Assembly: GCA_905178155.1 (NCBI GenBank)
Contig: CAJINV010000013.1
Location: 2,724,158-2,788,157 of the forward strand
Direction of reading: 5' to 3'
From: Amoebophrya sp. A120
Taxonomy: Eukaryota; Protista; Dinoflagellata
Length of the DNA: 64,000 nt
Shown here piece after piece: positions 21,779-62,700 of this stretch. A program made the position numbers and the translations under genes. Below the pieces are notes generated by a model. The model saw nothing but the letters and a program-made list of their open reading frames with translations, made no database searches and was not told where the DNA came from. Every line of letters begins with the position of its first letter. Positions within the stretch are counted from its first letter, which is position 1.

Positions 21779-22254
21779 AAACTCTGTTGCTACACCTCCA
21801 TGATGACCATGTGATGCCCCGACGCCGTCACCTACTTCGTGATGATCATCTTGGTGTAGTTGTGATTTGAGGCCACTGTGGGTAGTTGTTGAGCGTATTA
21901 CCGATGTTGTTGAGAATTAGACAAAATAAAAGTGTAAATTGTACAACAAGAAAAAGGTTTGTAGAACGGGACTGCCACTGAAAGACGATCGATGTATACG
22001 AAATGCGAACAAGTGAAAGTGAGGAAAAAAAAGGCAAAGCAATATACTGAAAGTCCTTTTGTTGATGGAGGAAGGAATGGGAACAACAAAAAAAAATGCA
22101 ACACTATGCAAAAAATAGGAGCGAGAAAGATCGAGAAAAAAAAAACACGTTTGGGTTCGGCTGTCCTCTCACGCCAAATTTGCCTTTTCCCCGTCGTGCG
22201 CGTCGACTTTGGAACTTTTTCCATTAGGATCGGTCAGCTTCCGTCTCATTGCTC

Positions 22255-38089: not shown

Positions 38090-38968
38090 TGTGTTTCTTT
38101 GGTCGAAGAGAAGCCGGCGGGCTAGGGGGGTTCGATTGATGTCTATCTAGATCTACAAAGCGCAACGGTCACATGAAGCACAGTGTCAAAATAGGACGGG
38201 CCGCTACCGAGACACACTGTTCACGAAGAATGAAGCTAAATTCGAAATCACAAGAGACTGCCGGGCATTTAGTTGACGGGCGGCTGTTTGGTAACAAACG
38301 AAAGGTCACGAGATGGAGCGTCTGATCGGCTTTGTAGTCTGTTTCTACTTTCTAATCACCTTCATTCGAACCTTCCGTGGGCGGAAACACCTGAAAAGAT
38401 CAGCTCAAATTGCCTGCTTGCTGTTGCAAGGTTCCTGCTCTTCATGCAAGTCATATTCCTTCTCGGAATTGGTGCGCTTTCTTGCTACCGCAGCTGCGGT
38501 GTGTCTGTCACACTTCGATAAGGCGAAGGCCAACGACGTTCAGGAAGGCTTTCATTTTACATTCACACATCGTTTACACAGTTGCTGTTTTTCTGTTTTT
38601 CTAGTGGGAGCACTCTATTTGAAAATTGTATAACCTTCTTGTCCTCTACACAATGATCATCATCTTCACATTACAATCTCGATTTTTTGGAAAAACTATT
38701 CTACAAATTCAAATTTACATCATGCTGTTTTGCTATAAGTCGCTACCATGCATCATCAGAAGCGGAAAGTCAACAGCGACTCTCCTGGTTGAATATCTTT
38801 ATCGTTTCTTACGTCGATTTGCACAGCACGGGAAGGGCTAAACTTCTGCCGTCGTATCGATTTTCAAAAGTAGAAGTACGAAACAAGAACTTCATTGGCA
38901 ATAAAGTTATGATAGATACATTTCCTCCCGCCGTTGTAAGAAAGTAGTGCTGCGCTGTTTCGATTTTT

Positions 38969-41900
38969 TTACAAATCCGGAGGGCAGCTACCCTGGTCCC
39001 GACATTGATCCGCAACCTCGCGGATTCCGTGCCAAAGTAAATCTTGCGCCATGGCGTCGCCGTCCCGAATGTATTTTTCAGAGGTAGTTTCCGCGTCTTT
39101 GATGTCTTCCTCAAAGCTGTTTTCATTCCTGCTGGTTCTTCCTCCGTTCGACGAAGAGAGTCGTGGCATTCGCGACGAAACATAAAACGGGACCATTTTC
39201 AACTCTGCCATGGCGGTCTCTGCTGCTTTTGATACGTGGGAAACGAAAGACCAGCGACGCGAAGAAGATGAACTCTCTTGCACTTGCTCGGCGGACGAGG
39301 CAAGACCCGAAGGAAGATGAAGATCCTCACCGCTCCCGGTGACCTCCACGCCGAGCGTCGCACTATTGATGTGGCCATCTCCGTTATCGGTCGTCCCTCT
39401 CAGGAGCGAGCTCGCCGCCGGGGGGTCGTGCTCAGTGGCTGCTTCTGGTTGCTCACTCTCTACTACACCTGCACTTAAGCTTGCAGTCGTGAACGAGCTC
39501 GCGCCGGTACTTGGTTGTGAAACCCCAGACGAAAGTACTGCCGTATGAGGATCCTCCGGGGTTTCTTCATTTCCGTCCGGTTCGACTTCGACCAACTCTG
39601 GTAGCGGCAACATCAGTGGCGCCAAAATGTCAAACGCGAGCTGCTCCGCGGACCTGCGGGTTGGCTTCAGGTTTTCTAGCAGAAGGAGCGCCGCTTGTTT
39701 CTCTTGAACATCTTGTTCGCTGACATCAGTGTCGCGGGCGGAGGCGTTTCTCCATCTAGAGAACGACTCGGAGACCTGTGTTTTCCACCGCCAAAGTTGC
39801 TGCGACGCGGTGCTGCGTGGTTGCGAAGTTGTGCCACCAGGAAGCGGCCCGGGTTGGTCGACAGCATTTTCATTTTTTACTTCCGTTTTTTCTTTTGGTA
39901 GATCGAGGGTTTTTTCACTCCGTACCAGCATCGCCACCAGTCTCCGGCCGCCAACACCGGTATGGTCGAAAGAGGGTAGTTGTGTTTGCATCTGCAATGG
40001 CTGCTCCGGTGCACTAGCACTAGCAGTACCGCGCTTCTGCCAGAGTGAGAATGGTGCGCTGTGGTTGTAATACACCCTCTGTGTGATACTCCTGGCACTA
40101 CTCTGCCAGAAGGATTTCACTCTGGAAAGCCACGAAACAGACTGCTGGGCCGGCTCAGTCGCGGCGCCTTCATCCGGATCGGCCGCAGGGGTGGTAGTGG
40201 GAGCAGTCGTTTCCGGATTTGCAGCACCAGACTCCGCTTCCTCAGGAAGATCGGCCACAGGAGTTGTGGCGGGAGCAATCGTTTCAGAATTTGCAGCGCT
40301 GATGTGGTCACCTCCTTCTTGGTCCAGCAACGGCTGCTGTGCCCCGGAAATACTAAGGGAAAGGCTGCCGAAAGTAGTGGCGGTTGAGTCAGCAACACCT
40401 GCAGCGGCGCTGCTTGATGCTGGAGGTTCTGGTACAACCGGAACGGCCGCAGGAGGCCCCTCAGGCACTGCTTTTGCCGCGATGAGCAGGTGCGCCGGGG
40501 AAAAGCCTGGAAAGTGGAAGTACTTCTTCTCTAGGTCAACAAGAATACCGCCGGCCGCACGGGATTCCTCTGCAGTCATCTGCTGCGCTTCACCTGAAAC
40601 GGCAGTCCCAGCAGAAGTAAAAGATGTACCAGAACCGGATAAAAAACTCCCATCTACTAGGGCACTCGAAGAATATGTTGAGCTACTTGCTGCAGTAGAC
40701 GCGGAGCTGCTCGCTGCTGTGCTGGCCACTGACGTTGCGGCGGAGCCACTGCTTTCCGTGCTATTCGCACGCTCCATGGTCATTTCTTCAGGTGGTATTC
40801 TTGCCACGGTAGTTTCATCATTTCTCGCATCTTCTTGGCCTCCAACGGAAGACCCCTCCTGGCTATCTCCTGTGGGTCGTGCGACAGCTACACTAGGGCT
40901 CTCTATTTCTCTTACGCGAGTCGCGCTCTCATCTGCGGCCGCAAGATCTGGCTCGGGGTCCTGTGCAGCTGCTTTGTCCTTTAGTTCAACGCCGGTCACC
41001 ACGGCGTATTTTCTCGTCGGTCCGCCTACATCGCGATTTTGCGGCGTGGAGGTTGAAGTGCTTGTCACCATCCGGTAGTCCAGCGGCAGTCTCTGCTCCA
41101 GTTCCCACCCTTGTCGCAGCTCCCTCAAGAAGGCGCCGCAGGTGGATCCAGGCTTCGCCGATGTGTCGTGCTGCTGTTGTGCCTCTTGCTCTTTCTCATC
41201 TCCGGTCGCCTTTGCCTGCTCGCCGTCAGCAATCGCACGCCCATCTTTCCTCTTTTCATCAACCCGAAAATCCACCAGCTGCAGGAGTTTTTTCTTTTCC
41301 GCCTCGTAGTTCGCTCCGCCCAAGCGGCGTCGGTCGAAGTAGAAAAACGCCGACAAGCACGTCGCAATGGCGGGATTCCCCGGCCCCGCTTCGATAAAAG
41401 ACCACCGCTCACGGTGGTTGGTCGGACTTGCACTCGAAGTCGGACTTGTTGGGGCGGATGCATCTTGTTGTTCGCCAACGGCCGCCGTACTTCTAGGAGA
41501 ATCGATAAGAGCGTTGGAAGTCTTCGTGTCTAGCAGAGCTGTATCATAGTCCGGTGCATTCAGGACATCAAGCAGCATCAGGCTCCATGCGAACCGCTCG
41601 AATTTTGGGGAGAATTGAAACCGGTTTTGCGCCAGAAAGATTTGTCGATCTAGGTCTTGGATTTTTTGGGCGGCCGTTTGACGATCCTGTTCAGCACGAC
41701 GAGGGCCTTCGTCAGAAGAGCCTGACGTCACAACAGGAGCCGGCACGTGCTGCTGGCCATCAACTACAGGTCCACCTGGGCTCTCAAGTCGTTCCTCTGC
41801 CCGTCCTGTGGGTTCTTGATGTAGCAAAGCTTCTCTTTTAGACCGCTGCTCCTGCTCGACGACTTGTGCCAATCTCTTCTCGCGGTAACACAAATCTTCC

Positions 41901-44740
41901 CAGACCGGGTCGACGTACCCTGCCGTCCCATCGCACAGATACCGGCTGTTCTTCTTCTCCTCTCTCCCCATCAGATTCTTGCTGTTTGGGGCAAGAAACC
42001 GGTCGCCCTTCCGACTCAGAATCCCCGCCATACCGAAGTCGAAAATCCGAATTTTGGTGTAGTCAGCCGATGGTGGGGGAGATGCTCCTCTTGTGAAGGC
42101 GGAAAAAGACGTCGGCGGAGGCGGCGCTGGAGTCGTCGACGTCGGCAGGTGGCTAGTTCCAGCTCCAGTTGGCCGCGTCAAACTGTTTTGCAGCTGATGC
42201 AGGAGTTGTTGTCCTCCCTGTCCGCTCCCCGGCGGCGCGTGGGGAGAATTCCAAAGAGGAAACCCGACGTTTGGCGTTTTCATGTCCGCGTGCAGGATCC
42301 GGAGCCGCTCCAGTTTCCGCTGACAGCTGAGCGCGTGGCTGACGAAGGAAAAACTCTTCTCCGCGAGTTGTTCCGCAACTACTTTCTGCTTTTCTTCGCT
42401 CGCGTCCAATGGAAAAACCTCAACTCGCTCCATCGCCAGGAAAACGTCGAGTTCATAGCTGTTTGCTGTAGTTCTACTCGTCTGCGCGACCTTCGTCGCG
42501 AGGCTCCTGTTTGACCTCCTGATCGGTTTCTTGCTTCCGCCTCCCTCCCGCAGCTTGAGCTTCCCCCTAGCATGCACGGAATGCAGCGCCGTGACGCACT
42601 TGTTCTCGTAAATTAACTCGCTGCGCTGCTCGGCGGTGAGAAGGATGTCCTTTGCGCCTGGTGGTACAGAAGACAACACGGTAGAAGGTGTTGGAGAACT
42701 ACCAGCAACTACAACTCCCCGACCCTGCTCTTCTCCACATGAAGATACTTGCCGTTTTTTGCAGGAGCGGAATTTATTCCGGAAAAACTCGACGAAAAAC
42801 CTGCGATTGATATTTTTGCGGTCATTTTCACTTGTGGCTTGACGGAGTAGTAGTTCTTCCTGGCGTTTGTTGATGTCATCCGCGATGACAAATTCCTCAA
42901 AAACCGTCAAAGCCCTTTGGATCAACACCTCAATCACCACGGCGCGGAGGTCCTGCTTGTGCTCGGTCTTGATCCTTTTTAAAACTTCTCGTGGTGTCGA
43001 CCGCGCTGCGCCAGCTGAGACTGCAGGAGGAGCTGCAAGAGCTGCTCCCGGTGCGGTTGAAACGGTTGATGGATTTGTATTATCGGGTATTGAAGTTGCT
43101 CCATCATTGGTTTGCGTTCTTTGTGTAGTAGAACTGTCAGCGTGAAGATTCTGCTGATCCGCTACGAATCCTGCTGGTCCTGCGTCTCGGTTCTCCTCAG
43201 CAGCAGAAAATGACGCTTGTTGACTATGAAGACTGTCCGCATCGTCTGAAAAAGTTTCGTCCGAAAGCTCGAAAACGCTTCCATTGCCCCCGCTCCCGAT
43301 TTCCGTCATGGTGACTCCATCGCCTGTGCTGTTGCCGGGATCTTCAGCCCCGTCGGTGCCTCCAGCTGCGGAGGTCGTTATCGAGAAGGTTCTTTTCAAC
43401 CTCGCAGACAGGCTTCGCGGAACGGTTTTCTGCTGCAGCCAGTCCGCAGCCTCCACAACCGCGGATGGGAAAGAAAAAGTAGTACGCTGCAGGTAGGATT
43501 TTGGTCCATTTTTGCTTGCGTTGCTCCGTTTATTCTTTTCCCTGTTTTGTCTCGTCCGGGTCGATTCCAGGCCCTTTGGTGGCCCGTTGTGGAAGACGGA
43601 CAGCAGCTTGTGTTTGATCCAGGCGGTTCGCGTGCGCCGTGCTGGTGGTGGTGATACACCTCCCTCGGTAGGCGTTCCTTCTCGGGAGGAGGAGGTCATA
43701 GGACCTTCACTTACCGCTGCAATAGGTCGCGACTCTTGCGTACTGTTTACAACGTTCTCCGCTCCTGGTCCTGCTGGTCCTGTTGCGTCTGCTGCTTGTT
43801 CAATGTTATCAGTCAGAAGTTTGAACGCGTAGAGGACTGGGCTTTGCTGCCGCTCGGGATTAGCACTGCGACTGCTCGTCCCGGTTTCCTGCCGATCCGC
43901 TACAACTGGCGCTGTGGCAGGACCAGGAGTAGCAGGAGGCAGCTGGTGAGTATTACTTCCCGGCTCCGAAGCCGTGGCAATCCCGGGGAGGAGGGCTTCT
44001 GCTTGTTCATCACCCGCGAGAGACAAAGCAGCACCTCCACCTGCATCGCTATCAACCGCAGGGGAAGTTGTACTATCTAGATTTGCACTTCTCACCTGAT
44101 GTCCACCTGTTGCTCCAACATAAGCGTGGGCGTCTGGGTAGTTTTGATTTGCCCGAAGAGCACCTACAGGAGCTGCCACTGGGCCTATTGCAGCTGCTGG
44201 TGCATCTTCTGGATCTATTGCGGAAGAAGAAACAAAAACTTGTGGATCGGTATTCTCTTCGACAGGCTCGAGAACCCACAATTCTTCCGGAAATAGGTCG
44301 AAGAAAAACTTTCCTTCCTCTTCTGAATCCAAAATTTCCGCTGCGATGTCGAGTAGTTCGTTCTTCGGTCGTGCGGAATTTTTACTGTCCTTTGCCTCTG
44401 TGACGCCAGTCGTGCTATAAAGATCTACTTCTCCTACCCAGAAATAATCCTGCACTTCCTCTCCTTCACCGTCGGTGCTTCCGCTACTATCACCGTGAAG
44501 AAAACTGAAAAATCCGTAAATTTGCTCCATGAAATGCCTTCTGCGGGATTTAATGGTATGATTCTTGCCATGATCTTCTGCGCCGGCAGGGAGAAGGCGG
44601 GCATTGGCAACATGCTGACCAGCATCCGGTGCCGCAACGCTGATGCTCTGAAGCGCCAGCACCGAGGTAGGAGCATAATTTCCGCAGAGCAGAGCAGTGC
44701 AAAAGACGAAGAAATAAAGTCCGGAAAAAACTGGGCTCAT
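38969..44740 (-). CDS. Large single-exon protein kinase with signal peptide and long low-complexity inserts
   Basis: ATG 44740 MSPVFSGLYFFVFCTALLCGNYAPTSVLA; kinase motifs IGSGGNGSVF, VLKRI, VIEVLIQ, LAMERV, ILHADMKTPNVGF, IFDFG, DGTAGYVDP. Confidence 0.85.
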   Translation of the reverse strand: MSPVFSGLYFFVFCTALLCGNYAPTSVLALQSISVAAPDAGQHVANARLLPAGAEDHGKNHTIKSRRRHFMEQIYGFFSFLHGDSSGSTDGEGEEVQDYFWVGEVDLYSTTGVTEAKDSKNSARPKNELLDIAAEILDSEEEGKFFFDLFPEELWVLEPVEENTDPQVFVSSSAIDPEDAPAAAIGPVAAPVGALRANQNYPDAHAYVGATGGHQVRSANLDSTTSPAVDSDAGGGAALSLAGDEQAEALLPGIATASEPGSNTHQLPPATPGPATAPVVADRQETGTSSRSANPERQQSPVLYAFKLLTDNIEQAADATGPAGPGAENVVNSTQESRPIAAVSEGPMTSSSREGTPTEGGVSPPPARRTRTAWIKHKLLSVFHNGPPKGLESTRTRQNREKNKRSNASKNGPKSYLQRTTFSFPSAVVEAADWLQQKTVPRSLSARLKRTFSITTSAAGGTDGAEDPGNSTGDGVTMTEIGSGGNGSVFELSDETFSDDADSLHSQQASFSAAEENRDAGPAGFVADQQNLHADSSTTQRTQTNDGATSIPDNTNPSTVSTAPGAALAAPPAVSAGAARSTPREVLKRIKTEHKQDLRAVVIEVLIQRALTVFEEFVIADDINKRQEELLLRQATSENDRKNINRRFFVEFFRNKFRSCKKRQVSSCGEEQGRGVVVAGSSPTPSTVLSSVPPGAKDILLTAEQRSELIYENKCVTALHSVHARGKLKLREGGGSKKPIRRSNRSLATKVAQTSRTTANSYELDVFLAMERVEVFPLDASEEKQKVVAEQLAEKSFSFVSHALSCQRKLERLRILHADMKTPNVGFPLWNSPHAPPGSGQGGQQLLHQLQNSLTRPTGAGTSHLPTSTTPAPPPPTSFSAFTRGASPPPSADYTKIRIFDFGMAGILSRKGDRFLAPNSKNLMGREEKKNSRYLCDGTAGYVDPVWEDLCYREKRLAQVVEQEQRSKREALLHQEPTGRAEERLESPGGPVVDGQQHVPAPVVTSGSSDEGPRRAEQDRQTAAQKIQDLDRQIFLAQNRFQFSPKFERFAWSLMLLDVLNAPDYDTALLDTKTSNALIDSPRSTAAVGEQQDASAPTSPTSSASPTNHRERWSFIEAGPGNPAIATCLSAFFYFDRRRLGGANYEAEKKKLLQLVDFRVDEKRKDGRAIADGEQAKATGDEKEQEAQQQHDTSAKPGSTCGAFLRELRQGWELEQRLPLDYRMVTSTSTSTPQNRDVGGPTRKYAVVTGVELKDKAAAQDPEPDLAAADESATRVREIESPSVAVARPTGDSQEGSSVGGQEDARNDETTVARIPPEEMTMERANSTESSGSAATSVASTAASSSASTAASSSTYSSSALVDGSFLSGSGTSFTSAGTAVSGEAQQMTAEESRAAGGILVDLEKKYFHFPGFSPAHLLIAAKAVPEGPPAAVPVVPEPPASSSAAAGVADSTATTFGSLSLSISGAQQPLLDQEGGDHISAANSETIAPATTPVADLPEEAESGAANPETTAPTTTPAADPDEGAATEPAQQSVSWLSRVKSFWQSSARSITQRVYYNHSAPFSLWQKRGTASASAPEQPLQMQTQLPSFDHTGVGGRRLVAMLVRSEKTLDLPKEKTEVKNENAVDQPGPLPGGTTSQPRSTASQQLWRWKTQVSESFSRWRNASARDTDVSEQDVQEKQAALLLLENLKPTRRSAEQLAFDILAPLMLPLPELVEVEPDGNEETPEDPHTAVLSSGVSQPSTGASSFTTASLSAGVVESEQPEAATEHDPPAASSLLRGTTDNGDGHINSATLGVEVTGSGEDLHLPSGLASSAEQVQESSSSSRRWSFVSHVSKAAETAMAELKMVPFYVSSRMPRLSSSNGGRTSRNENSFEEDIKDAETTSEKYIRDGDAMAQDLLWHGIREVADQCRDQGSCPPDL

Positions 44741-46338
44741 CTTCCTCGTACTGCTACTGCCGGAAAAAAAGTGCTGTCTCCTGTAAAATACTTCTGCTTC
44801 GCCGGAAGGGTTTTGTGAAATAAATTGCAATTGCTGTTTAGATTCTACAAAATTCAAAAATTGATTCGCATTCGGCTATTCCATTTATCATGAAACAAAA
44901 TAAAATAAAAAAACAAATATTACAAGAACGGGCTGCAGAGCCGATATATGGCTGTCAAAAACCGCTACGGAATTTTTTGTATGTAGCCAAGAAAAAATCC
45001 TACAGAATCAAGTAAAAGTGCTTAGGCTTTTTAAATGATGAAGATAAAGATAATAAACAGCAAAAAAGTTTTACATCGCTGTTGTACTACTAGAAATGGT
45101 ACCGCAGATAAAACGAACTTGTTTATTCAACATGAAGGTGATCATCTAAAGTGGTATCACGTCCACGAGGGTGAAAGCACGTGCTTGCCACGTGCTTGCA
45201 TGTGGATGTGCTATTCGTAGAACTAGAAGTCGCCCTAAAAATAGTAAAGGCTGATCACGCACTCGTCGTATCCAATTGATGTCAAGCGGGAGGTTGCATC
45301 AAAATCATTCCGATCTTCGTTCTAAGTACTTTCTCTTGGAGAGAAAGCCGTTTTTCTTTTTCTCGATCGGATCCCTCTCCTTGTAGACCTTTTTGCTTTT
45401 CGATTGTCAGATCAGACGAAGTAAAAAACGAATTCGCTGAAACGACCAGTGCACAAAGACAAACTCGCGACTTAAGAATAAGACATCCGAATCACAGGTT
45501 GTTGTAACACGCTGGTGTTATGGCGCTCCCAAGTTGCGTTGCGAATCTGCTAACGCGTCTGCAACGGAAGAAGAAGAACTCCGCTGCATCGCGGACTGCG
45601 TCATAATAGTGGTCCCGCTACCGCCTCTTGGTCTTATCGCCCAAAAAAAATTTTCCGTCGCTGCAGTCTCGCTTACAACGAACTACGGGGCCGCCCATAG
45701 CAACATCAAATCGACAGTCAGGCATGAGGCCGACTTCTTCTCGGAATTGCTTACATGATCATTCTCGTGTTTGTTACCCCAGATCCATCGAAGCAAGCAA
45801 TCGAAAAACCAAGAAAATAGAAGCGAGACGACTAGGATGTTAAAAAAACTACTAGTTGTAAATCTTCAGAATGCGTGTCGGAAGTTAGTACAAAAAGAGA
45901 GCTGGAGAGCGGCTCGATTACAGTTATGAACTTGAAAAAATCCGAGCGCCGGGTATTTTTCAAATTCATAAAGCAAAGCCAGACTTCAGTGGAAGAAATT
46001 ACAAGAGCTTGAAATATTGTGGGGTAAAACGCTGATGTTCATCCAGGGTGGTTGTACCTACGATATTGAGGGCTATATCAATCACTGCAGCTGAAAAATC
46101 TCCTACCATAACTACACTAGTATCGATTTTCATACACACAGAGCTGCGATGAGAAGCAGAAAACTTGACACTAGTGTAGGTGCTATCCTGTGATAGAAAA
46201 GGGATTAAGTACTATTTAAACTTTAAAAATCTGTCTACTGCAGGGAGCTTCTCGATGATGTCGAAAGAGCGCGATTGCAAAACACGACCAGTTCACCTCA
46301 AAAATACTGAACATCTCCTTGCAATGAAACTCCCACCT

Positions 46339-48174: not shown

Positions 48175-49237
48175 TGTTCTTTTTGGCTCTTCGCTGGAGA
48201 AATCGACCAGAGTTGTTCGTATCCTCTTGGGTAGAAGAAAAAAACCAAAGGAAACGACTTAAATCAGGTTGTAAGAAGAGCTGGTGATAAAGCCCTTTTA
48301 CAAAAGATGAGAGGTCAGAAATCTACTTAAATTGTATATGGGGAGAGCAAATTATGACAGCACTGTCGCCACGCAATCTGCACTTACTTTGATGTAGAAA
48401 CACAATGAGGAGGCAGCTACCTACACGACCCTAGCAGTGGTCCTAGCCGCAGTACGAAATTTTGCGGGCGTCGTGAAATTGGAAACTAGACGCAAGTGGA
48501 CGAATTTTTGCCGATGGATGGAATTCATCTTGCAATCGAAACGATAAACGACTACTAGTTCTTCTTCTTCCGACCGTCACGACATGAGGAAAAAAATGCA
48601 AAATCTCTTTACCGAAAGCCGCAATTGAGATTGCGGTTTCTGCCAAACGAAATTGTGTCCTTTCACCACAACAAAACAACCGATGCCTGTAAAAATACTC
48701 GTCTTCTTGTTCTTACCCAGGTCCGATTTTCACTGTGTTGTTGCAAGGCAAATAAACGCAGCACGACCGACATTTCCTGTCATTGTATGTACGAAGGTAC
48801 TTGTACTCAAGATTCGAAGCAGAGTTTTCCTAGAACTCAACTTTTTTGTCCGGCTGGAGGCGATAGGCATAAGTAACATGTACGAGGCTGCCGGTACGAC
48901 GAGAGACAGAGGACTCAGTGAACGCAATTATACTGCATAATCTCGTGCTCGTCTGAATACGTCTTTTGTATATCATTCGGATGAAAAGCGAGAGTCTTTG
49001 CATAGCACTTACAAGTACGCAGCTCCGATTCATTCTTCTCTTTCACGAGTTATGCGTTTGCTTTTTGAATGGATAAATGTTCAAACAGTTTTTGATGGCT
49101 TTTTGACATTCATGATCGGTCTCTTCCGCATACATTTCAAAAGTAGAGGGACGACTGTGAACAGTAGAGGGACGACTACAGTGAAGATCCTGAGTATGAT
49201 GAAGATCATACTAGATCCCGTTCTTCATATTCACAGT

Positions 49238-52200
49238 TCACAGTTCTTCTCTTTCCTTCGGCGTCCGCCACACATTCAAGGCCATGTCTCTTCTCGCAGA
49301 GGCCATGGGCTGCTTTTCCCCAGCCTGCTTGGCAAATTGCCGGTTGGATTTCTTGTAGGGCTTTTCGAGGAAGCTCCTCTCCAGCTGGATCGCCATGCTG
49401 AAACGCGATTCCTGCGTGCCGATGAAAAAGTCCGCCCGGTATCAAGAAGAAAAATCCCCCCGCGCCATATCAAAACGGAAATCTGTGATGCTGATTTGCA
49501 GTCGCAAATCAGCTTTGTGATGCTAGAAGGGAAAAGATGCGGACTGTAGTGCTGGGTGGCGTGGGGAAGCCTTGCATCTTCAGCATGACAGAAAGCAACT
49601 GGAAGTGGGAAACAGCATGACAAATTTCCTGCAAACGAGGCCACGACTGCGGCTCTTGGCCTTCTAGCATTACGAGTCGATTTGTGTACTTACTCAAATA
49701 CCGCATCAGAAATTTCGGTGTCGATATGGGGTGGGGGGATTTTTCCATTTGATACCCGGCTCGCAATCCACATCTCGACGATGCTCTGCTTGCCCGGGTG
49801 CTGCAGCGTTTCCCGGTGCGCGTCCGAGGTTTCCTGGTAGTCGAAAAACACCAGATCGGACGCGGTTTTCTTGGTTTTTTTGCTTGTTTTTGTTCCACCG
49901 GCGTCCGCGTCGCTATCCTCTTCGTCCAGTTTGTCTAACACGTCCTCACCGTTGAAGAGCAGCATGGCCTCCTCCTTCTCCGCCTTGGTGGCGTCGGTCG
50001 CGATGAAGATCTTCTGCAACTTCGTCTCCTTCTGCAGCGCCTTCAGCTGCGTCACGATCGAATCCCAGTCAGCTGTGGTCGAGGCCCGGGACTTGACGAA
50101 ATCTGACCGACGACAATGCGCGGCAATAAACTTGGTACCTGTACTAGTGTCGTAGATTTTTGAAGTACAGCTGTTGTTGCATCAATATTTCTTCGTGCAC
50201 CAAAGAAAAAGATAACAGCATGATCAGCTCATCACATGAACATGAACATGATCATGAAGTCGCATGTCTCTATACCTCCAAACTTTTCCCGCATAAACTC
50301 CTCCCCGATGGTTCGCAGATCTTTGTGAAAATGGACCGACTCCCGTAAGCCAATGCCGTCCAAGGCGGAGATGTCCGGAATCGCCAAGTAGTCGTAGTGT
50401 TTGATCAGCACGGTCGAAACGTCCTTGTTGCCATCGTCGAGCATGTCGACAATGCCCTGCGCGAACGGCGTTTTGATGATCCCACACTTCACATTCGTCG
50501 TCACGACCCCCTTGTCGCAATACCCCGCATAGACGACCCGTTTTTCGTCTTTCTCCTCACTATTTTCCACGTCTTGCACAACTCCGGTTATCAGAGAGAA
50601 GTAGTAGAACACCTACTCCCTCGCCCTTCTTCACGATAATTTTTACAGGAAATGCAAAGCAAGCGAAACAAGGACAAGATAGAAAGCCAAGAGTGATACA
50701 ATAAATCTGCTCTCGCATGAAAAGAAACGAAGAGCACAGACGCACGGATAGATTGTAGAAGCGCCATCCACCTGCAGCTCTGGCGCCGGGCGCCTCATGC
50801 AACAAACATGGCCACAGCACTCCTGAGCTCCTTGAGCAGCACATCAAGTGTACTAGGCACGTCGACTATGTTCGTGCCTCTTCACGATTTTTCTCGAGTT
50901 GACGACGGAGGGGAAGATCTTCCTGTGCACTCGGATCATACCGCCCTTTGCCTTGTCACAATCGGTGTAGTCGTTCTGCGACCACCCGACAAAGTCGTCC
51001 CCGGGGTTTTTCCCGGGTGAAATCATCCCGTACCTTTGCTCAACGTCGTAGAAAATGACGCGGTCGATTTTGTTGGAATTGTTCAGCGCTTGCTGGGACA
51101 GCTCGTGATACTCGATCACGGAGAATGGCAGCTGCTTCAACATGTCAATGTCGAACAGTTCGCCCCAGGGTAGTTTCTGCAGGCGGTTGGGCAAGTCGTA
51201 GTTCCGCCAGTGCGCCAGCCGGCACCAGGGGGGCAGCACAATCCCCCACAGGACGCAATCCGGGGTCTTCCCGAGGGAACCCGACTCCCCGCACCGGTCT
51301 TCGATACGAAAGTTTAGCATCGCCACCGCGTGCGCGACGCGGGGAAACACTTCCCGCTGGAGGTTAAACCCCTCGCCATACTTCGTGTCATACAAGAGCC
51401 AGCGCCGGTTCTTGCTGGTGGTAGATGTTGAGTCCGTTTCTGCTGCATCAGTACTATCATCTGCAGCGCTGCCGCTATCGTGGAGAATTACCTTGTTCGT
51501 TCCCAAGGTGTCCGTCTCCTTCGCCTTTGGGTCTTTCTGCTTGGTCGGCGGATTTTTCAGCGCGTCTAAAACGTGGTCCAGCCCCGCTTGGTCGTCGGCC
51601 AACACGGCGGGCTCTTTCTTCTTCTTTTTCTTGCCTTCTTTTCCAGCTTTCGACGCTATTGCTGTAGGTTTTTTCGTCTTTCCCGAAGTAGAAGATGTCG
51701 CGGTAGAAGTGGTACTTGTGCTGGTACTAGTACTTCTTTCTGGTTTATCTTTCCCGGGTATCTCCTTTGTGCACTTGGATACGCACTGCGCCATCGGTCT
51801 GCGCATGGCTTTGTCGTAGCACATACAACTAGGCCCAACCTCCGGTGGCTCGGGCGTATCCGTGCACGCCGCGCCGCCACGCGACATTTGGAAGTTGCCC
51901 TTGCCCATAACTCCCTCGCACCAGGTCTGGCACGTGTTCAAGTCGGCATTATCGGGACACGGGTGAATCAACCCAGTTGTCGAATCAACAGCGGGGGCGA
52001 CGGCCGGCGCAGAAGGAGTACTAGCAGAGGCCACTTTCTTTTTCATCTCTGCGGCTTTTTTCTTGTCGAGGTTTTTTTCGGAATTCGAAGTTTTCTTGGT
52101 TCCCGCCATTTTCTTGTGCAGAGCCTGTTCGTCGTCGCCACTATCGTCGGTGTCTAGGTCGTCTAAGTCATCGTCATCTTCTGCGGTGGTCTCCGCTTCG

Positions 52201-55200
52201 GCGTCGATTTTCATCTTCGCTGCTTTTGTTTTACTTTTGATGTTCCCTTTCGTTGTCTTTGTACTGCTCTCTACAACTTTTTCGTTCTGCAATTTCTTCT
52301 CTACAAACTTGACGAACTCGTCCTGTTTCCGGCCCCCCTCGAACTTCTCGATTATCCTGAGTAAAAACGTCCCCACACCAGAGTTAAGCTGGGAAATCTG
52401 CTAGACAAATCTATCAGTTTTTGCTGTTGCGCATGACAAATTTGGCCTCGCAGTGTAATCCTGTTTAGCTTGTTTAGCAGCATCACAGATCTAGCACATC
52501 ATGCTGATTCTAGCATCACAAATCCAAAAACACGACTAGAGACTGCTTCTCATGGGTCTCCGCATGAGAAACATGCTCAGCGTGCAGATTTGCATTACAA
52601 CTCTGGGGTGGGGACGTTTTTACAAATGATATCGATATCCTTCGCTTTATCCGCCGGGTACCAGTAGATGGTCGGGTACCCACTTATGCTCGGCATCACC
52701 TTCTATCAACTGTAAAAATGTCTGGGTCTGGAAGAATTCGAATTTGTGATGCGAAGTCTACATCATGAGAAAATCTGTCATGCATGGCTAGCAAAAGGCC
52801 CCACTTCTTGTTTCCGAGAGCCGGGATTTGTCATGCGGATTAGGCATTGGGATATCTGCTCAAAATCTGTGATGCTAGAGCTTGTATTCCAGACGATTTG
52901 GGTCATGCAAAATCTGCATGACAGATTTCGCATTCTTCCAGACCCAGACATTTTTGCAGTTGATACCTTCCGTGCGTCCGTTTGCGTCGCGTCCATCTTG
53001 GCGATCAGGACGCTCTCGTTCTTCTCGAAGTGCTTCGCCACCTTCTTCCACACCGGCGCCAGGGCTTTGCAGTGTCCGCACCAGGGCGCGTAAAACTCGA
53101 CCAGGAGGGCCTGCTGCCGGTTCTCCACGATAGCTTCCCAGTTGGACCCCGTCAGCGTGACCACCACGTCCTTCTCGGCTTTTAGTGTCTTGCTCCCCCA
53201 GGCCTTCGCGAACTCCTGAATCTCGCTCTTCGTGATCTTCTTCAGGTTCGGGGGTTTCTTGCCGCCTTTCGTGGACGGGTCGTTTGCCTTGCCAAAATGG
53301 TACACCTGGGTGGGGGTAGGGGAGGGGTAGTTAGTACTACACGAGGTTTATCTTTTTACCCGCAACCTTTACTTGCAACATGTTGGAAAGAATTCTGATC
53401 AGCCTAAGAACGCTAACGAGCTGCAAGCAGTTTACACACTTATACGTAAACACCTTATCTTCGTCTTCGGTCTCACCGAATTCCCAGATAAAAAACGCTG
53501 GCGCCTGGGTATCACTCGAAATGTGCTTCACAAAGTCGTCCCCCCATGTGCCGGTTTTTGCCGCCACCCACTTTAGTTGTCTTTGGGCAGTGTCTTCAGA
53601 CGTGTTCTTTGCTTTGTCCTTTTCCAAAGTCCAGTCCTGCGCCGCGCGGTAAGCTTGCTCGAAAAGGTGCACATCGGACGCTGCGTCGCCGTACACAACG
53701 GCGAGCGCCTTCCCGGGCGCAGTGTCGTGCAGGAAGAGCGACTCGTTCTCCTGCGCGGCCGTAATCAGGTACTTTCCGGCCTGGTTGACCTTGATCCAGG
53801 AGAGAAGGTTTTTACCGCTTGTTCCTTCTTCCGCGATCTCAGGACTTGTAGTGTCGCGGTACACGACGCCAGAATCAAGAATTACATCTGTACGTTTAAA
53901 ATATCCCGCTTTTTCGGATATCACCGCAGTGCAAAGGTACGTCTACGTTGATCTTGATCATGTTCTTGCTATATACGAAAATAGTCAGAAACAAAAAGCA
54001 GGCGAACAATGTTGCACAACAGAAGTAGTTGAAGTACAAAATGAACACGGGCGATCAAGTAGGTGCTGGCGTCATTACTAGTATAAATATGGAGGAGGCA
54101 ATGGCACCCTGATAGATCAAATTGTACCGTTCCGGAGCAGATACGTCCCGACTTTTCCCTTCGCCAATTTCAGCGCAAAGTCGTCCCACTTTTTCCAATC
54201 CGGCTTTTTCTTTATCTGCTTTACCAGCGACTTCAGCAGCTGCGAATCCTTTTCCACATACACAACCGGAAAGTCTTGGTCCTTCGCATTCGCAACCGGT
54301 CGTGGGTTCAACACAAACCCCGCGCCGGCCAGCTCCTGAATCCCTGCATCGCCGGCCACATCCGGCTCGATCTCGGTGCCTTATGCATTGCAAATATGTC
54401 TGGGTCTGGAAGGTTGGAACTTGTAATGCAGGTTTTCCATGACCCATGAGGTCTGGAATGCCGAACCTAGCATGGCAGAGTCTGTGAGGTCTCTGTCATG
54501 CCTCTCCTGCATGAGAAACTCCCTCCCAACTTGGTTGAAAGTGGACAACTTTTGGCACTCACGCAACCCAGATTTTTGCATGATTCGGATTTAGCATGAC
54601 AAGTTCGCATTCCTCCAGACCCAGACATATTTGCAATGCATATACCTACGTGCAGAACCACGAAGGGTTTCTTCATCAGTTTCTCGACCACCGCGGATGC
54701 GGACACCTCGGCGGCGTCAAATTGCTGGAAAAACGGTTTCTCATTTTCGTACTTCCCGGTCACGTATTTTTTGAAGGAAGCCGCGTCCCGTTTTCCGTTG
54801 TACCGCACGTAGTAGTTCTGGTTTCGGTAGAAAAGGAGCAATGTGGGAAACCCGGTCACCGCAAACTTTCCCGCCAGGTCCTTCTCCACCGTGGCGTCAG
54901 CTTTGGCAATTTTGATGCTACCTTCCTCGCCCGTTTCTTCGCCCCAGGAAACTACCTCGGTCGCAAGCTTGTCCCAGTCCGGAATCAGCTTTTTACAGTG
55001 CCCACACCAAGGAGCGTAGAACTTTACGAAGGTAAGAGTGCTGGACTCGAGCGTGTCATCGAAATCAGCGGACGTTAGCTCGAGAACAGCAGCGGTGGTC
55101 GAGACAACCAGAGAATTACTTTTGGTGAGACTTGATCCGCAAAAGGACCACTTTACCACGCAAGAAAAAAGCATTCTTGCGCTGAACCCTCGCGGCCAAC

Positions 55201-55237
55201 CGCGACCGCTAGAAGCGGCTCTTTGCAGTTGCGCCAT
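49238..55237 (-). CDS. POFUT2: Protein disulfide isomerase (two WCGHC thioredoxin domains) fused to a POFUT2-type GDP-fucose protein O-fucosyltransferase, C-terminal REEL
   Basis: FYAPWCGHCK occurs twice; POFUT2 motifs RRWLLYDTKYGEGFNLQREVF, IVLPPW, RESVHFHKDL, IAAHCRRSDF, IFIATDA, IVEMWIASRADFFIGTQESRFS. The end of Trx domain 2 (IEKFEGGRKQDEFVKFV) and the POFUT2 N-terminus lie in the same ORF 50853-52376. Confidence 0.88.
49440..49754. mobile_element. Introner family A (315 bp), TSD cccgg, opposite orientation to the 1655 copy
   Basis: TIR tatcaagaagaaaaatccccccg / gggggatttttccatttgata; removal restores WIASR-ADFFIGT. Confidence 0.93.
52353..52631. mobile_element. Introner family C (279 bp), TSD tcgat, opposite orientation to the 4532 copy
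   Basis: TIR tatcctgagtaaaaacgtccccacaccagagt / actctggggtggggacgtttttacaaatgata; removal restores KAKDI-EKFEGGR. Confidence 0.92.
52704..52965. mobile_element. Introner family B (262 bp), TSD ccttc
   Basis: TIR tatcaactgtaaaaatgtctgggtctggaagaat / attcttccagacccagacatttttgcagttgata; removal restores TDARK-VMPSISGYPTI. Confidence 0.94.
54382..54642. mobile_element. Introner family B (261 bp), TSD tgcct/tacct
   Basis: TIR tatgcattgcaaatatgtctgggtctgga / tccagacccagacatatttgcaatgcata; removal restores VLHVG-TEIEPD. Confidence 0.93.
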
Positions 55238-55796
55238 GTTATTTGTTTTTGTTCCCCTTCCGTGCCGCGACTTTACCGCTTCCCTTCGCAGTCGAAGTTC
55301 GAATGACAGCGCGAACTTATTGCGATCGAAGAGAAAACTTGCCTCTTCGTTGTTACCAGGAAACCAGCCTCATCTTCAGTTTTACTTCATATGACGATCT
55401 CACAACCGCACATTCTAACTTCCTGTTCCTGCTCCGGCTACAACTTCATACATAAATAAAGAGTCCCATGGCACAACTCCACGAGTGGCATAATTTCATC
55501 ATCATTTCACATTCTTTCATTATAGAAGGCCGCATGTTCATTTGCCATGAAAAAGGTACATCGAGCGTTTTGGCCGCAGGTGGTGTGCATGATCGAACGA
55601 GGATCTTGCAAGCATCGAACCGATGAAGACATCATGTTCACGGAAAGCATCAAATAGAAAACCAGGACCGAGTTGTCACTTTGCGAAGCACCAAGAACTA
55701 AAAGAAATACAGCACACAGCATGAAAACTCTTGGAAAAAAGAAACAGATCGATGACCCATTTCATTTGATACTTGTTCGGTTTTGAAGATCTAAAA

Positions 55797-56898: not shown

Positions 56899-58217
56899 CT
56901 AGCGCTGGCCCTCCAGTTCCTTCTCTGTTAGGGTGACCAGGCCGCAGGAGTGTCTCCGTGTGAGGAACCAGTTCTGCCGATCAGCGTCTTCGTATTCCTG
57001 CGCGGCCCGCTCGCACCACATTTCGTCTTCGGGGTCATTCTCCGGCGTCCCCCGGCGGCAACACACGCCCTTCGTGCGCCGCTTCACCCCCTCCGAAAGC
57101 GTGGACCGGTCCGGGTCCAACCCACACGTCTCGTCGCAGAGCCCGCCGTGGCCGCCGCAGGCGTCGTAGCAATCTCCGCCCGAAAGTTCAAGCGTCGTCG
57201 CACGAGAGTCGCCGCTCGCAGAGCCGTCGACCATCCGCGGCCCGTTCGGATCCGGCGCGCAGCCCAGACCCACGTAACGGTGACAGGCCCCGTTTTCCTC
57301 GTACCGCACTTGGTGGTAAATCAGCTTCAGATAATCGTATTTCGTCTCTTCCAAATCGAAGCCGCCCCGCGACCGGCTCACGACCGCATCCAAGCATTCC
57401 TCCCGCGACGCTTTCTGCATCACCGGCTTTCGGTGTTGCGCGCACTCGTCCGCGTACGCTTTGATGTACGTCGAGTTTCCGCGATTCACCGCAAACTTGA
57501 TTTGATTCCACTCGCAGTCGAGGCGCTGCAGATTGCCACCCCGCAACTCATTTTTGAAACCGAAGATCTCCACACAGGTCTCCTCCCAGTTCGGGAACCA
57601 AGCGTCATGTCCAGTGGGATTCACCTGGACTGTGAGAGGACCAAGGTGGTAGGCATTTTGGTCGTCGTGTGTGCGGTCTTCAAACTGCGCATCCTCCGCC
57701 ACCCAGGGATTGTAATCCTTGTCGTAGCGATTGTAGAGCGTGCCCTCGGAGTCTTTGTAACGGGCGACCAGATCCGCGACCTGCTGCGGCGTCAGGCCAT
57801 AGGTAGTGCCGAAAACGATGTTGTTTTTACTCACAGTGGCAGGAGGCGTCGAAGCGGTCGTAGAAGGAGGAGACGCCGTTTCTTGCCGGCGACGACTCGT
57901 TGTACTAGAACGCCGGCGTCGACTACCACGCCGGCGCGAGCTGGACGCGTTTGAGGCGACTTCCGCAAACGACGCGGAAGTTGTACTAGCCCGACTACCG
58001 GTCGTGGGCGACGGCAGATGTTGAACTCCCCGCAGTCACTGTGCTTCCCCGAGTCTGCCGCGCCAGGCAGAGGAGGGGTCGGGCTGCCAAGCGGGCGATG
58101 TTTTTTGTCCCGGGCGAGCAGCGATTTCATCTTCCTCCCCTGCGAAGAGGACTCCACGACCTGGCCTGTCGAGCCCGCAAGCAGGGCCGTCGTGGAAAAA
58201 ATGGAGGACTTCTTCAT
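56899..58217 (-). CDS. Probable secreted Cys-rich protein
   Basis: ATG 58217 MKKSSIFSTTALLAG leader; main ORF 56899-57834 has CYDACGGHGGLCDETCG...GVCCRRG. A frame change near 58020-58080 (small intron or indel) is needed to join them. Confidence 0.6.
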
Positions 58218-59748: not shown

Positions 59749-62700
59749 TTAGTTTTCCTTGTACTGTAGGTTCCACTTGCCCAACCGGCCCAACGCGGAG
59801 GCCTTCAGCTCCCCGACCGAGACGTTGGCCGCCCCCAGTTTCGCGGCGGACCCGCTCCCGGAGCCCTTCTGCAGACCGTGGCCCTTTCCGCCGAGCGCGA
59901 CCAACCGGTCCATTAACGGGAAGTATCAAAATGAAAAATCCCCCCACCCCATACTCAACCTAGAAATTTGTGATGCAGATTTGTGGTCACAAATCAGCTT
60001 CGTCATGCTAGAAGGGAAAAGATGCGGACTGTAGTGCTGGTTGGCGTGGGAAAGCCTTGCATCTTCAGCATGACAGGGGGCAGCTGGAAGTGGGAAACAG
60101 CATGACAAATTGCCTGCAAACGAGGCCACAGCTGGGTCTCTTGGCCTTCTAGCATTACAAGTCGATTTGTGTACTCAAATACAGCATCACAAATTTCGTT
60201 TTCGATATGGGGAGGGGGGATTTTTCCTTTTGATAGGAAGTGGTCGTTGTTTTCCGCGTGCGCGACCGCCGTGTACTGCTTCGCGTCGTACGCGTTCAGG
60301 TCCGCGTATCCCACAGAAAAAAGCTGGCAGGGCATATAATTTGTAATGCAAAAATAAATACACAGAAAGACTTGCCATGGGCGGCCCCATAGCATGCAGC
60401 TTCGGATATGCAATACAGATTTTCTTGTGTATCTGTATTTATTTTCGCATTACAAATATGACCTGCCAGCTTTTTTCTTTGGGATACCGCGCCGAGCTCG
60501 AGCAGCAGCATGCACACCTCACTGTGGCCGCCGATCGCGGCGAAGTGCAGCGGCGTGCGCTTCAGGCGGTCCAGGGAGTTCACGTCCGCACCCCACTCGA
60601 CCAGGCGACACACACCGTCCACATCGTTGTTCGCGGTGGCGATGTGCATGGCCGCGCACCCGTTGCTATCGGACGCGGTGACGGGCACCCCGTACATGTG
60701 CAGCAGTTCCATGATGTCGTAGCGTTTGTGCTTGGTCGCGATGGTGAAGGGGATGTCGCCGGTCTTCGCGTTTTTCAGGTTCAGGTTCGCCCCCCGGCGG
60801 TAGCAGAGCTTCGCCAGCGCGAGGTTGCCCGTCAAACAAGCGTGCTCCAGCAGGGTTTTCTCGCTCTCAATGTCGCGGGCGTCGATGGAGGTGGTGTCGA
60901 GTAACTGTTATCAAAAGGAAAAATCCCCCCTCCCCATATCGAAATGGAAATCTGTGATGCAGGATTTGAGGTACCAAATCGACTTGTCATGCTAGAAGGC
61001 CAAGAGCCGCAGTCGTGGTCTCGTTTGCAGGCAATTTGTCATGCTGTTTCCCACTCTCAGCTGCCTCCTATCATGCTGAAGATGCAAGGCTCCCCCACGC
61101 CACCCAGCACTACAGTCCGCATCTTTTCCCGTGTAGCATGACAAAGCTGATTTGTGACCTCAAATACAGCATCACAAATTTCGTTTTCGATATGGGGAGG
61201 GGGGATTTTTCCTTTCGATAACTGCTCCAGTTTGTTCAGCAGAATGGTGCCGTTTTTCGTCAAAATCTGCCGAATGTTGAAGGTTGTGATCTTCTCCCGC
61301 GGCTGCTGCATCACGCCCCCGCGATAGTGACCCGCCGCAGCTCCGTGATGTTGTCCACCATGGGCCATGGACCCAGCCGCTCCTTTGCTGCCGGCGTCGA
61401 GGGTCGTGCCGGCTTTGCCCGTTTGATGCATCGACGTGGCGGATTTGTTGCCCGCCTGGTCCCCCGCGCCGGCTTCCGCGTGCTCCTCGGAGGCGGCAAG
61501 CGCTTTGGCGTCGCCCGCGGCGGTTTTCTCTTCCCGCTTCTTCCCGCCTTGCTCCAACAGCTCCTGCGACTTCAACTGATCCTCACTGGGCAGGTTGATG
61601 GCCTGGTCCGCGGTCAGCGTGGCCGGCTTTTTCTTGTCGTTGATGTCGTCTTCGGAAATGAGCAGGATCTTGGACAGTGCGTTCTGCATCTTCTTCACCG
61701 TGTTCACGTCCATCGCGCCCCACTTCACCTGGTCCGGCTTCGTGGATTTCACTTGTGGGTGCCCCGTGTCGTGCAGAAACTTCCACAGCGCCTTGGACAA
61801 GGCCAGCAGAATCACCGGCGCCGGGCCGGGCAGGGTGGCCAGTTTCGGCCAGTTCTTCAGGTCGGCGGAGGTGGGTTGCACGTCGCCATCAATCGCTTGC
61901 AGAATACCATCGTTATCCTGCAAATGCAAGATCGCGAGCGGGGTCAAGCTGTGTGTAGGAGTTGTTTTTTCATGAGGGATTTTTTCAGGGTGCAGTTGCT
62001 ATTTTTTCATGAATATACAAGGTTGTCAACATCGATCTGCAAGCCATATGTTATACTCATGACTCAATCTGCGGGGTGAGGTTTCACACAGAAGTATACA
62101 GAGTTCTATCGTACGTCATGCTCTTCAAGTTCAAAATACATGACTTTATTATACTTTTTGTTGTTCTGTCGTTCGATGATGGCGGTCATGAAGTAACCGA
62201 TGGACCTTAGCGAGAACAGGTTCGCTTCCAGGGAGATGTAACTGAGACTCGGGCACGTGGTGATGATCTGGCAGATATCAAATGCAAAAATGTCTGGGTC
62301 TGGAAAAATGCAAGATTTGTCATGCTTAACAGACTGCGCAGCTAAATGCAAGATTTGTCATGCATATTTCTCATGACCCATGATGCCTGTAATGCATGAC
62401 CTAGCATCGCAAACATTCAAAGGGCTTCCTGATGCACGTTCCGCATGAGAAATGCCCTGTCAGTGCAGCACAAACGGCGCCCCTCTTGCTGGTCATGCAA
62501 TACAAAACTTTTTAGAGTCCAAAAACAGCATGACAAGTTGCAATCTTCCAGACCCAGACATTTTTGCAATTGATAGCAGATGTCCGCACAGGAGTCCATG
62601 GTCAGCTGATTTTTCGACAAGTCGAGCGTGTGCAAACTCGGGCAATCGGTGAGGACTTGCGACAAGGTGGAAAACCCAATATCGGAGATGGCGGACCCCC

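Follow-up and report, generated by a model that had tools for sequence, protein, structure and literature searches.

In the quality control of the endoplasmic reticulum (ER), UGGT joins non-catalytic thioredoxin-like domains to a glycosyltransferase and marks unfolded proteins. POFUT2 modifies thrombospondin type-1 repeats, or TSRs, only when these are folded, and its O-fucose has been proposed to protect the TSR disulfide from ER oxidoreductases such as protein disulfide isomerase (PDI) (PMC9198472). The enzyme is thought to be a folding sensor that withdraws TSRs from disulfide shuffling. In apicomplexans, POFUT2 of Plasmodium vivax fucosylates TSRs in vitro (PMC5601480), POFUT2 of Toxoplasma is located in the ER and affects MIC2 (bioRxiv 10.1101/382515), and a pull-down with Toxoplasma PDI8 was enriched in POFUT2 (PMC11389393). 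A fusion of PDI with another protein is also on record, namely PDI-C, a hybrid of PDI and the Erv41/46 cargo receptor in plants and chromalveolates (PMC4729789). Here, a gene is described that encodes a PDI and a POFUT2 in one reading frame. It lies in a 64,000-nucleotide stretch of contig CAJINV010000013.1 (assembly GCA_905178155.1, positions 2,724,158 to 2,788,157) from the parasitic dinoflagellate Amoebophrya sp. A120; the whole stretch is called the window, and all coordinates refer to it.

PDI and POFUT2 on one spliced transcript

The gene occupies 49238-55237 of the minus strand, and its exons, joined from nine contig pieces, give a frame of 1326 amino acids that is identical to database record P0001, labelled Amoebophrya sp. 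A120 and publicly annotated as an 'unnamed protein product'. The encoded protein begins with a PDI (domains a-b-b'-a', two WCGHC sites), followed by a linker, a small domain with eight cysteines, a second linker, the POFUT2 domain, and the terminal residues REEL. An initial annotation, made from the letters of the DNA, had listed the two WCGHC sites, the O-fucosyltransferase domain, and REEL; all are present on the minus strand, far above chance by Pfam.

The PDI-POFUT2 fusion is real and is carried by one spliced transcript. A single 4507-nt contig of sequencing run X1 spans 48975-55500 as nine pieces with 0 differing letters, and contigs of runs X2, X3, and X4 have eight joints identical to those of X1, also with 0 differing letters. 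X1, X2, and X4 have one contig each that reaches from the first CGHC site to the stop codon, and X3 has one from domain a' to the stop; the contigs are taken as transcripts because the eight introns are skipped. Exon 6, the 1407-nt exon that holds the junction, is a single unbroken piece with 0 differing letters in the spliced contigs of all four runs, and an unspliced contig (49725-52379) spans it as well. The fusion had been proposed from an uninterrupted reading frame at the junction, said to make it independent of any splice guess. The stop-free frame is real (50853-52400), but both of its ends are intron, and the claimed independence fails: of the second thioredoxin domain, exon 6 encodes no more than the final ~20 residues. 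Because the exon carries only this end of a', the link to the WCGHC sites rested on two unusual introns, whose joints the contigs now show.

The PDI half

The PDI half covers residues 51-582. Pfam Thioredoxin matches P0001 in two stretches (E 5e-52), and the cut-off of TIGR01126 is reached (211.8 vs 107.2); that of the whole-protein family TIGR01130 is not (233.7 vs 344.25), nor was it reached by any of the four proteins scanned. A structure model was made for the orthologue from Amoebophrya A25 (1199 residues), in place of the A120 protein, with a predicted template modelling score (pTM) of 0.53. It contains four thioredoxin-type folds, a small folded domain, and a GT-B domain, and aligns to full-length PDIs in a structure search. 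PF13848 is above its cut-off in relatives P0008 and P0009 and was not found in P0001 by the Pfam scan. The predicted layout is a-b-b'-a', with two non-catalytic thioredoxin folds between the CGHC domains; this region, which had been called a non-catalytic spacer, corresponds to the predicted domains b and b'. The b' motif W[EQ]FG(E/D)-acidic-DK is shared by all 13 clusters of fused proteins found in databases (see below). Two WCG[H/Q]C sites are present in eight of nine fused proteins examined; P0007 has a single CGHC, and P0005 has CGQC in a'.

The transferase half

Pfam O-FucT (PF10250) matches the C-terminal half with E 2e-26 and 93.6 bits against a cut-off of 31.5, and P0001 matches human POFUT2 (4AP5) with E 9e-23. 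For the relative P0019, the best solved match is again POFUT2 4AP5 (E 3.5e-31), with POFUT1 at E 0.1, and the A25 model aligns to 4AP5 as a GT-B fold (E 2e-24, template modelling score 0.78 by target). Glu887, Asn890, His1141, Arg1143, Asp1182, Ser1271, and Phe1273 are kept, equivalent to human Glu54, Asn57, His292, Arg294, Asp333, Ser387, and Phe389; the roles of POFUT2 active-site residues are from PMC6096484 and PMC9828666. Glu887 aligns to the Glu that is mutated to Ala in 4AP6. The GDP-binding set (Asn57, His292, Asp371, Ser387, Thr388, Phe389) is identical at four of six positions, and the replacements, Glu1255 for Asp371 and Arg1272 for Thr388, are both as in POFUT2 of Plasmodium yoelii and P. 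berghei. The acceptor-side motifs near the catalytic Glu match those of Plasmodium and Chromera POFUT2. By sequence, this is a POFUT2-type transferase with its catalytic residues intact.

Linkers and the eight-cysteine domain

The region between the two enzymes had been described as a Lys/Asp-rich linker. A linker is indeed present, but it holds a folded eight-cysteine domain (51959-51771) that had been overlooked. In the A25 model, disorder is predicted on both sides of this domain (564-635 and 699-793), and the linkers are long, variable in length, basic, and of low complexity. The eight cysteines are invariant in 26 of 26 aligned sequences, and the domain was modelled as one helix and three strands with a predicted local distance difference test (pLDDT) score of 86. 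It is present in all 13 fused clusters and, counting near-copies, in 72 of 295 collected proteins; no protein in the collection that is named as animal, apicomplexan, Chromera, or chlorarachniophyte has it. On sequence grounds, it is a marker of dinoflagellate-type POFUT2.

In the cysteine-stabilised alpha-beta (defensin-like) motif, a helix carries CxxxC and a strand carries CxC, a pattern that the eight-cysteine domain fits. Plant defensin 7jn6 aligned to it with Z 2.7 and a root-mean-square deviation of 2.6 over 40 residues, at rank 16 and tied with unrelated folds. No Pfam family matched at E 1, no Foldseek match was found at E 0.001, and the Atlas gave no usable match; among 48,161 chains none had Z of at least 5 (best 3.3), from which neither a new fold nor a lack of relatives follows. 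The idea of a built-in TSR-like acceptor was discarded, since the CxxxC motifs are without Ser/Thr just before the second Cys. Prediction of a complex between the eight-cysteine domain and the A25 transferase domain, run without an alignment, scored 0.00 and was counted neither way. As a guess, the domain might be a client-binding or docking module.

Two variations on this region were observed. A partial protein of Prorocentrum cordatum, P0055, has two eight-cysteine domains in tandem ahead of POFUT2. A second small conserved domain, starting with W-x-F-D, lies ~60 residues ahead of the eight-cysteine domain in ten core-type fusions (P0003-P0006, P0008, P0009, P0118-P0121), is also carried by some paralogues that lack the catalytic Glu, and is absent from both Amoebophrya proteins and P0007.

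Distribution among dinoflagellates

The architecture was sought in two database searches, one covering proteins of 820-2340 residues and the other, a profile search, proteins of 1018-2905 residues. Thioredoxin and O-FucT occur together in nine of nine matches of the former and 12 of 16 of the latter, which gives 13 clusters over both. P0122-P0125, long POFUT2-type matches without thioredoxin, were set aside as unrelated joins. In six of the 13 clusters a member has an organism name, and each of these is a dinoflagellate: the parasites Amoebophrya A120 and A25, and four that are not parasitic, Biecheleria cincta, Cladocopium goreaui, Apocalathium hangoei, and Breviolum minutum (a partial model). 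The layout is common to free-living and coral-symbiont dinoflagellates besides the parasite Amoebophrya, and in nine aligned fused proteins both halves are intact at 33-48% identity to the A120 protein. Fused relatives are automatically named 'protein disulfide-isomerase', and the fusion is hidden in databases because such names say PDI only. The named POFUT2s collected from Chromera, Plasmodium, Cryptosporidium, Amorphochlora, and animals are without PDI and without the eight-cysteine domain. Perkinsus, Oxyrrhis, and colponemids are not among the named matches, which says nothing on presence there.

The initial annotation had inferred an enzyme for the TSR adhesins of a parasite. A parasite-specific adaptation is not supported and was rejected: the non-parasitic B. 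cincta, A. hangoei, and C. goreaui have the same layout, and the apicomplexans that make TRAP and MIC2 have an unfused POFUT2.

Relationships were examined in quick trees of the transferase domain, comprising a larger tree, built without near-copies from proteins that cover at least 75% of the domain and with 14 of the animal matches, and two further trees of 39 and 27 chosen rows. In the larger tree, proteins with the eight-cysteine domain cluster together with a Shimodaira-Hasegawa-like approximate likelihood ratio (SH-aLRT) support of 98, beside Chromera and the apicomplexans; the 39-row tree does not resolve this cluster. A sister clade of ten tree rows (P0150, P0152, P0153, P0155, P0160, P0163, P0176, P0210, P0217, P0250), most with the eight-cysteine domain, has no catalytic Glu in seven of seven members examined and keeps the donor-binding HxRR motif. 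Its members are likely pseudo-enzymes, judging from these residues.

Proposed function and alternatives

On balance, we lean towards a tethered relay in the ER, in which the isomerase and then POFUT2 act on TSR clients. Clients with thrombospondin repeats would have their disulfides made and rearranged by the isomerase half; the transferase half would fucosylate each repeat once its native fold is reached. In the ER, where the fusion protein presumably resides, the halves would be flexibly tethered through the predicted disordered linkers, and fucose would keep the adjacent isomerase from reopening a repeat that is already complete, with the greatest gain for proteins with long repeat arrays. 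We infer the activity of both halves, the TSR clients, and the kinetic gain from tethering. The fold-then-lock idea of the initial annotation is kept as a best guess compatible with the published POFUT2 model (PMC9198472), stripped of its parasite adhesin setting.

Candidate clients are plentiful. Numerous TSP1 proteins are reported in both Amoebophrya strains (PMC6176090), TSP1 proteins are expressed in another parasitic dinoflagellate (PMC13693241), and in Symbiodinium, TSRs stand in arrays, not TRAP-like, that run up to 16-20 repeats (PMC5446238). When the window was scanned in six frames for TSR motifs, four matches came up, none convincing.

Several observations weigh against the relay or the evidence beneath it. 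Runs X1-X4 represent one sample, their contigs are not single molecules, and their RNA status is guessed from the record, no run that contains the stretch being registered as RNA; the raw-read RNA runs X8, X9, and X10 have 0 reads on the exons, the 85 reads of X8 lying on introner repeats only, and are no test of the gene model. An N-terminal leader is present as first annotated, but in A120 it is atypical and weakly hydrophobic (best 11-residue window 1.89 at residue 42, near the domain start), in contrast to the clear hydrophobic stretch of the A25 orthologue (2.75 at residue 16). Likewise, the KDEL-like REEL is present here but is not general, with an xxEL end in three of 13 fused clusters and no KDEL-like end in the other ten. 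The PDI8 pull-down contained mostly apicoplast proteins, and the relevant section of PMC11389393 gives no reciprocal confirmation of POFUT2. A shorter-length search found unfused paralogues of the dinoflagellate type, in which a leader and the eight-cysteine domain come before POFUT2 and PDI is missing; one bears the name Effrenium voratum. Incomplete assembly may account for some of them, but several start with a hydrophobic leader immediately ahead of the eight-cysteine domain. As they have their own leaders, the transferase needs no isomerase in cis. In the 39-row tree, fused and unfused forms interleave with 5 changes, and a single clade of fused rows is rejected in the 27-row tree (approximately unbiased test, p-AU 1e-5). 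One fusion before the split between Syndiniales and core dinoflagellates, with later duplicates losing the isomerase half, is likely; given the shared PDI half, a single gain followed by several losses would explain the pattern most simply. The single origin of the PDI half rests on the shared b' motif and a cross-search, not on a tree.

In another explanation, both halves work but are kinetically uncoupled, the isomerase either doing the work of an ordinary ER PDI or serving the transferase as its own chaperone or anchor, comparable to PDI in the complexes of prolyl 4-hydroxylase, MTP, and Htm1. Long, disordered linkers of variable length and the apparent repeated loss of the isomerase half would be expected of such an arrangement, and PDI as a partner subunit is among the top structural matches (7zsc, 6i7s, 8zpw). 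We nevertheless consider it somewhat unlikely: unfused paralogues argue against the need for a chaperone subunit, both CGHC sites are conserved in eight of nine proteins examined, and the paired enzymes act in sequence on the same disulfide-rich substrates. The client could also be something other than a TSR, with the eight-cysteine domain steering the enzyme to dinoflagellate-specific disulfide-rich proteins and a family of fused, unfused, and dead members expanded around that role. This possibility, which draws on the restriction of the eight-cysteine domain among the collected proteins, its retention with HxRR in the Glu-less sister clade, and the second small domain of ten core-dinoflagellate fusions, is judged unlikely given the acceptor-side match to Plasmodium and Chromera POFUT2, the far closer solved relationship to POFUT2 than to POFUT1, and the many TSR proteins of dinoflagellates (PMC5446238, PMC6176090).

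The remaining explanations deny that the halves work as one protein. Polyproteins are known from other dinoflagellate gene families, and long, basic, low-complexity, predicted disordered linkers could be sites of cleavage that releases isomerase and transferase as separate proteins. This is quite improbable, however, in view of the single leader, the sole retention-like signal at the far C-terminus, and the lack of a conserved cleavage motif in the linkers of nine aligned proteins. Least probable by far is the joining of two neighbouring genes by misassembly or a wrong gene model. Repeated introner elements interrupt the gene and fragment DNA contigs, and the unspliced run X5 may be the source of the assembly itself; misassembly is nonetheless largely refuted by the coverage of the junction exon, without difference, by four spliced runs and the unspliced contig, and by the same order in twelve further clusters from genomes, transcriptomes, and metagenome-type sources.

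A bolder form of the tethered relay is possible and is offered tentatively: a self-contained dinoflagellate fold-and-lock enzyme predating the Syndiniales/core split, in which the isomerase would pass disulfide-rich domains directly to POFUT2, the eight-cysteine domain would select or dock the client, and the dead paralogues, which have the same domain, would serve as folding sensors or regulators. If true, ER quality control would have a module common to the whole lineage, and its evolution would be direct evidence for PDI-POFUT2 coupling in other eukaryotes as well.

Gene structure, introner elements, and other features of the window

The exons, introns, and domains of the gene are collected in Table 1. 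Of its eight introns, four cannot be cut at GT..AG, and terminal inverted repeats are present in four. Introns 1, 4, 5, and 8 qualify as introner elements by their repeats, genomic recurrence, and removal by splicing, with an imperfect direct repeat in intron 1. Such elements have already been described in Amoebophrya (PMC7789003), and those found here have the same features, with no difference.

Table 1. Features of the PDI-POFUT2 gene, in window coordinates and in order of transcription
Feature	Position	Strand	Content	Basis
Exon 1	54643..55500	-	5' leader as far as the longest contig reaches, ATG 55237, N-terminal leader, domain a, start of b	Contigs, residue map, Pfam
Thioredoxin domain a	55087-54752	-	CGHC codons 55006-54995	Pfam
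Intron 1	54377..54642	-	Introner type; terminal inverted repeat 32/35 matched; no GT..AG cut fits	Contigs
Exon 2	54128..54376	-	Predicted non-catalytic thioredoxin-like domain b	Contigs, A25 model
Exon 3	53450..53887	-	End of b and most of b', b' motif	Contigs
Exon 4	52965..53301	-	End of b' and thioredoxin domain a', CGHC 53080-53069	Contigs, residue map, Pfam
Intron 4	52698..52964	-	Introner type; inverted repeat 38/41, direct repeat at ends; GT..AG cut also fits	
Exon 5	52632..52697	-	66 nt of domain a', flanked by two introners	Contig joints
Intron 5	52348..52631	-	Introner type; inverted repeat 21/24, 5-nt direct repeat; no GT..AG cut	
Exon 6	50941..52347	-	End of a', Lys/Asp-rich linker, eight-cysteine domain, Ser/Thr/Lys-rich linker, POFUT2 start; Glu887 51374-51372	
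Eight-cysteine domain	51771..51959	-	Residues 692-754, within exon 6; predicted helix and three strands	
O-FucT domain	51407-49289	-		Pfam
Intron 6	50584..50940	-	357 nt; lacks a long inverted repeat; no GT..AG cut	
Exon 7	50273..50583	-	Middle of POFUT2 domain	Contigs
Exon 8	49755..50135	-	POFUT2 donor-binding half: His1141, Arg1143 (50112-50110), Asp1182, Glu1255	Contigs, residue map
Intron 8	49435..49754	-	Introner type; inverted repeat 21/24, 5-nt direct repeat; no GT..AG cut	
Exon 9	48971..49434	-	POFUT2 end, REEL 49252-49241, stop 49240-49238, 3' untranslated part	Contigs

For intron 1, a GT..AG pair three bases off the observed cut would give a base that differs from the contigs, and AT..GC or TA..CA are the only cuts consistent with them; its excision apparently takes place at a non-canonical site, although a canonical one is adjacent. 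Across window positions 2743-62559, the inverted-repeat motif of introns 1 and 4 recurs as six head-to-head pairs, and that of introns 5 and 8 in several further places.

The long frames of the window are nearly all on the minus strand, consistent with the one-way gene clusters reported for Amoebophrya. A 2836-residue stop-free frame at 13406-21916 (minus strand) has a reverse transcriptase domain (RVT_1, E 3e-15) and is likely, from its sequence features, an intact retroelement. Another of 1968 residues (38969-44875, minus) has no Pfam match at E 0.01. The upstream neighbour of the fusion gene (56899-58035, minus) encodes 378 residues with a cysteine-rich C-terminal part and has no Pfam match at E 0.1. 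The same strand also encodes a DUF547 protein (36821-38146) and a protein with ankyrin repeats (60296-60907).

Comparison with known systems

The initial annotation knew of no earlier description of a PDI-POFUT2 fusion, and none was found among the matches listed for the full-text literature searched, which leaves supplements and most subscription papers outside; annotation tables of genome papers (Amoebophrya, Symbiodiniaceae) may list both domains for the gene. A term search of the main text of a 2025 fucosyltransferase review found no mention of thioredoxin, disulfide isomerase, fusion, or dinoflagellate (PMC12717137). Both halves are well-known enzymes; what is new is their fusion across dinoflagellates, with an unclassified domain between them. 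A natural single-chain PDI-POFUT2 beside unfused paralogues, in lineages from a parasite to coral symbionts, permits a clean test of cis against trans action. It also points to an unexamined dinoflagellate O-fucosylation system, which includes a new small domain and a clade of likely pseudo-enzymes and may have a part in the making of the many TSR proteins of these organisms.

Compared with POFUT2 of glycosyltransferase family GT68 (PF10250; human 4AP5/4AP6, C. elegans 5FOE/8AY1, Plasmodium, and Toxoplasma), the transferase half is alike in its predicted GT-B fold, catalytic Glu and Arg, donor motifs, and alveolate-type variants. The known enzymes stand alone, whereas in the present protein the transferase follows a whole PDI and an eight-cysteine domain. 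Classical PDIs (PDIA1, PDIA3) share the two WCGHC domains around two predicted non-catalytic thioredoxin folds; in place of a retention signal after the PDI, the present protein continues for 740 residues into a second enzyme. PDI-C is likewise a lineage-restricted fusion of PDI to a secretory-pathway protein, but its partner is a cargo receptor, not a glycosyltransferase (PMC4729789). PDI is also tied to an ER modifying enzyme in prolyl 4-hydroxylase (7ZSC), MTP (6I7S), and Htm1/Pdi1 (8ZPW), in each case as separate chains in a fixed complex, whereas here one chain is joined by predicted disordered linkers. The combination of thioredoxin-like domains with a glycosyltransferase recalls the layout of UGGT; in the dinoflagellate protein, however, the two CGHC sites are preserved, and the domains that POFUT2 marks are folded ones.

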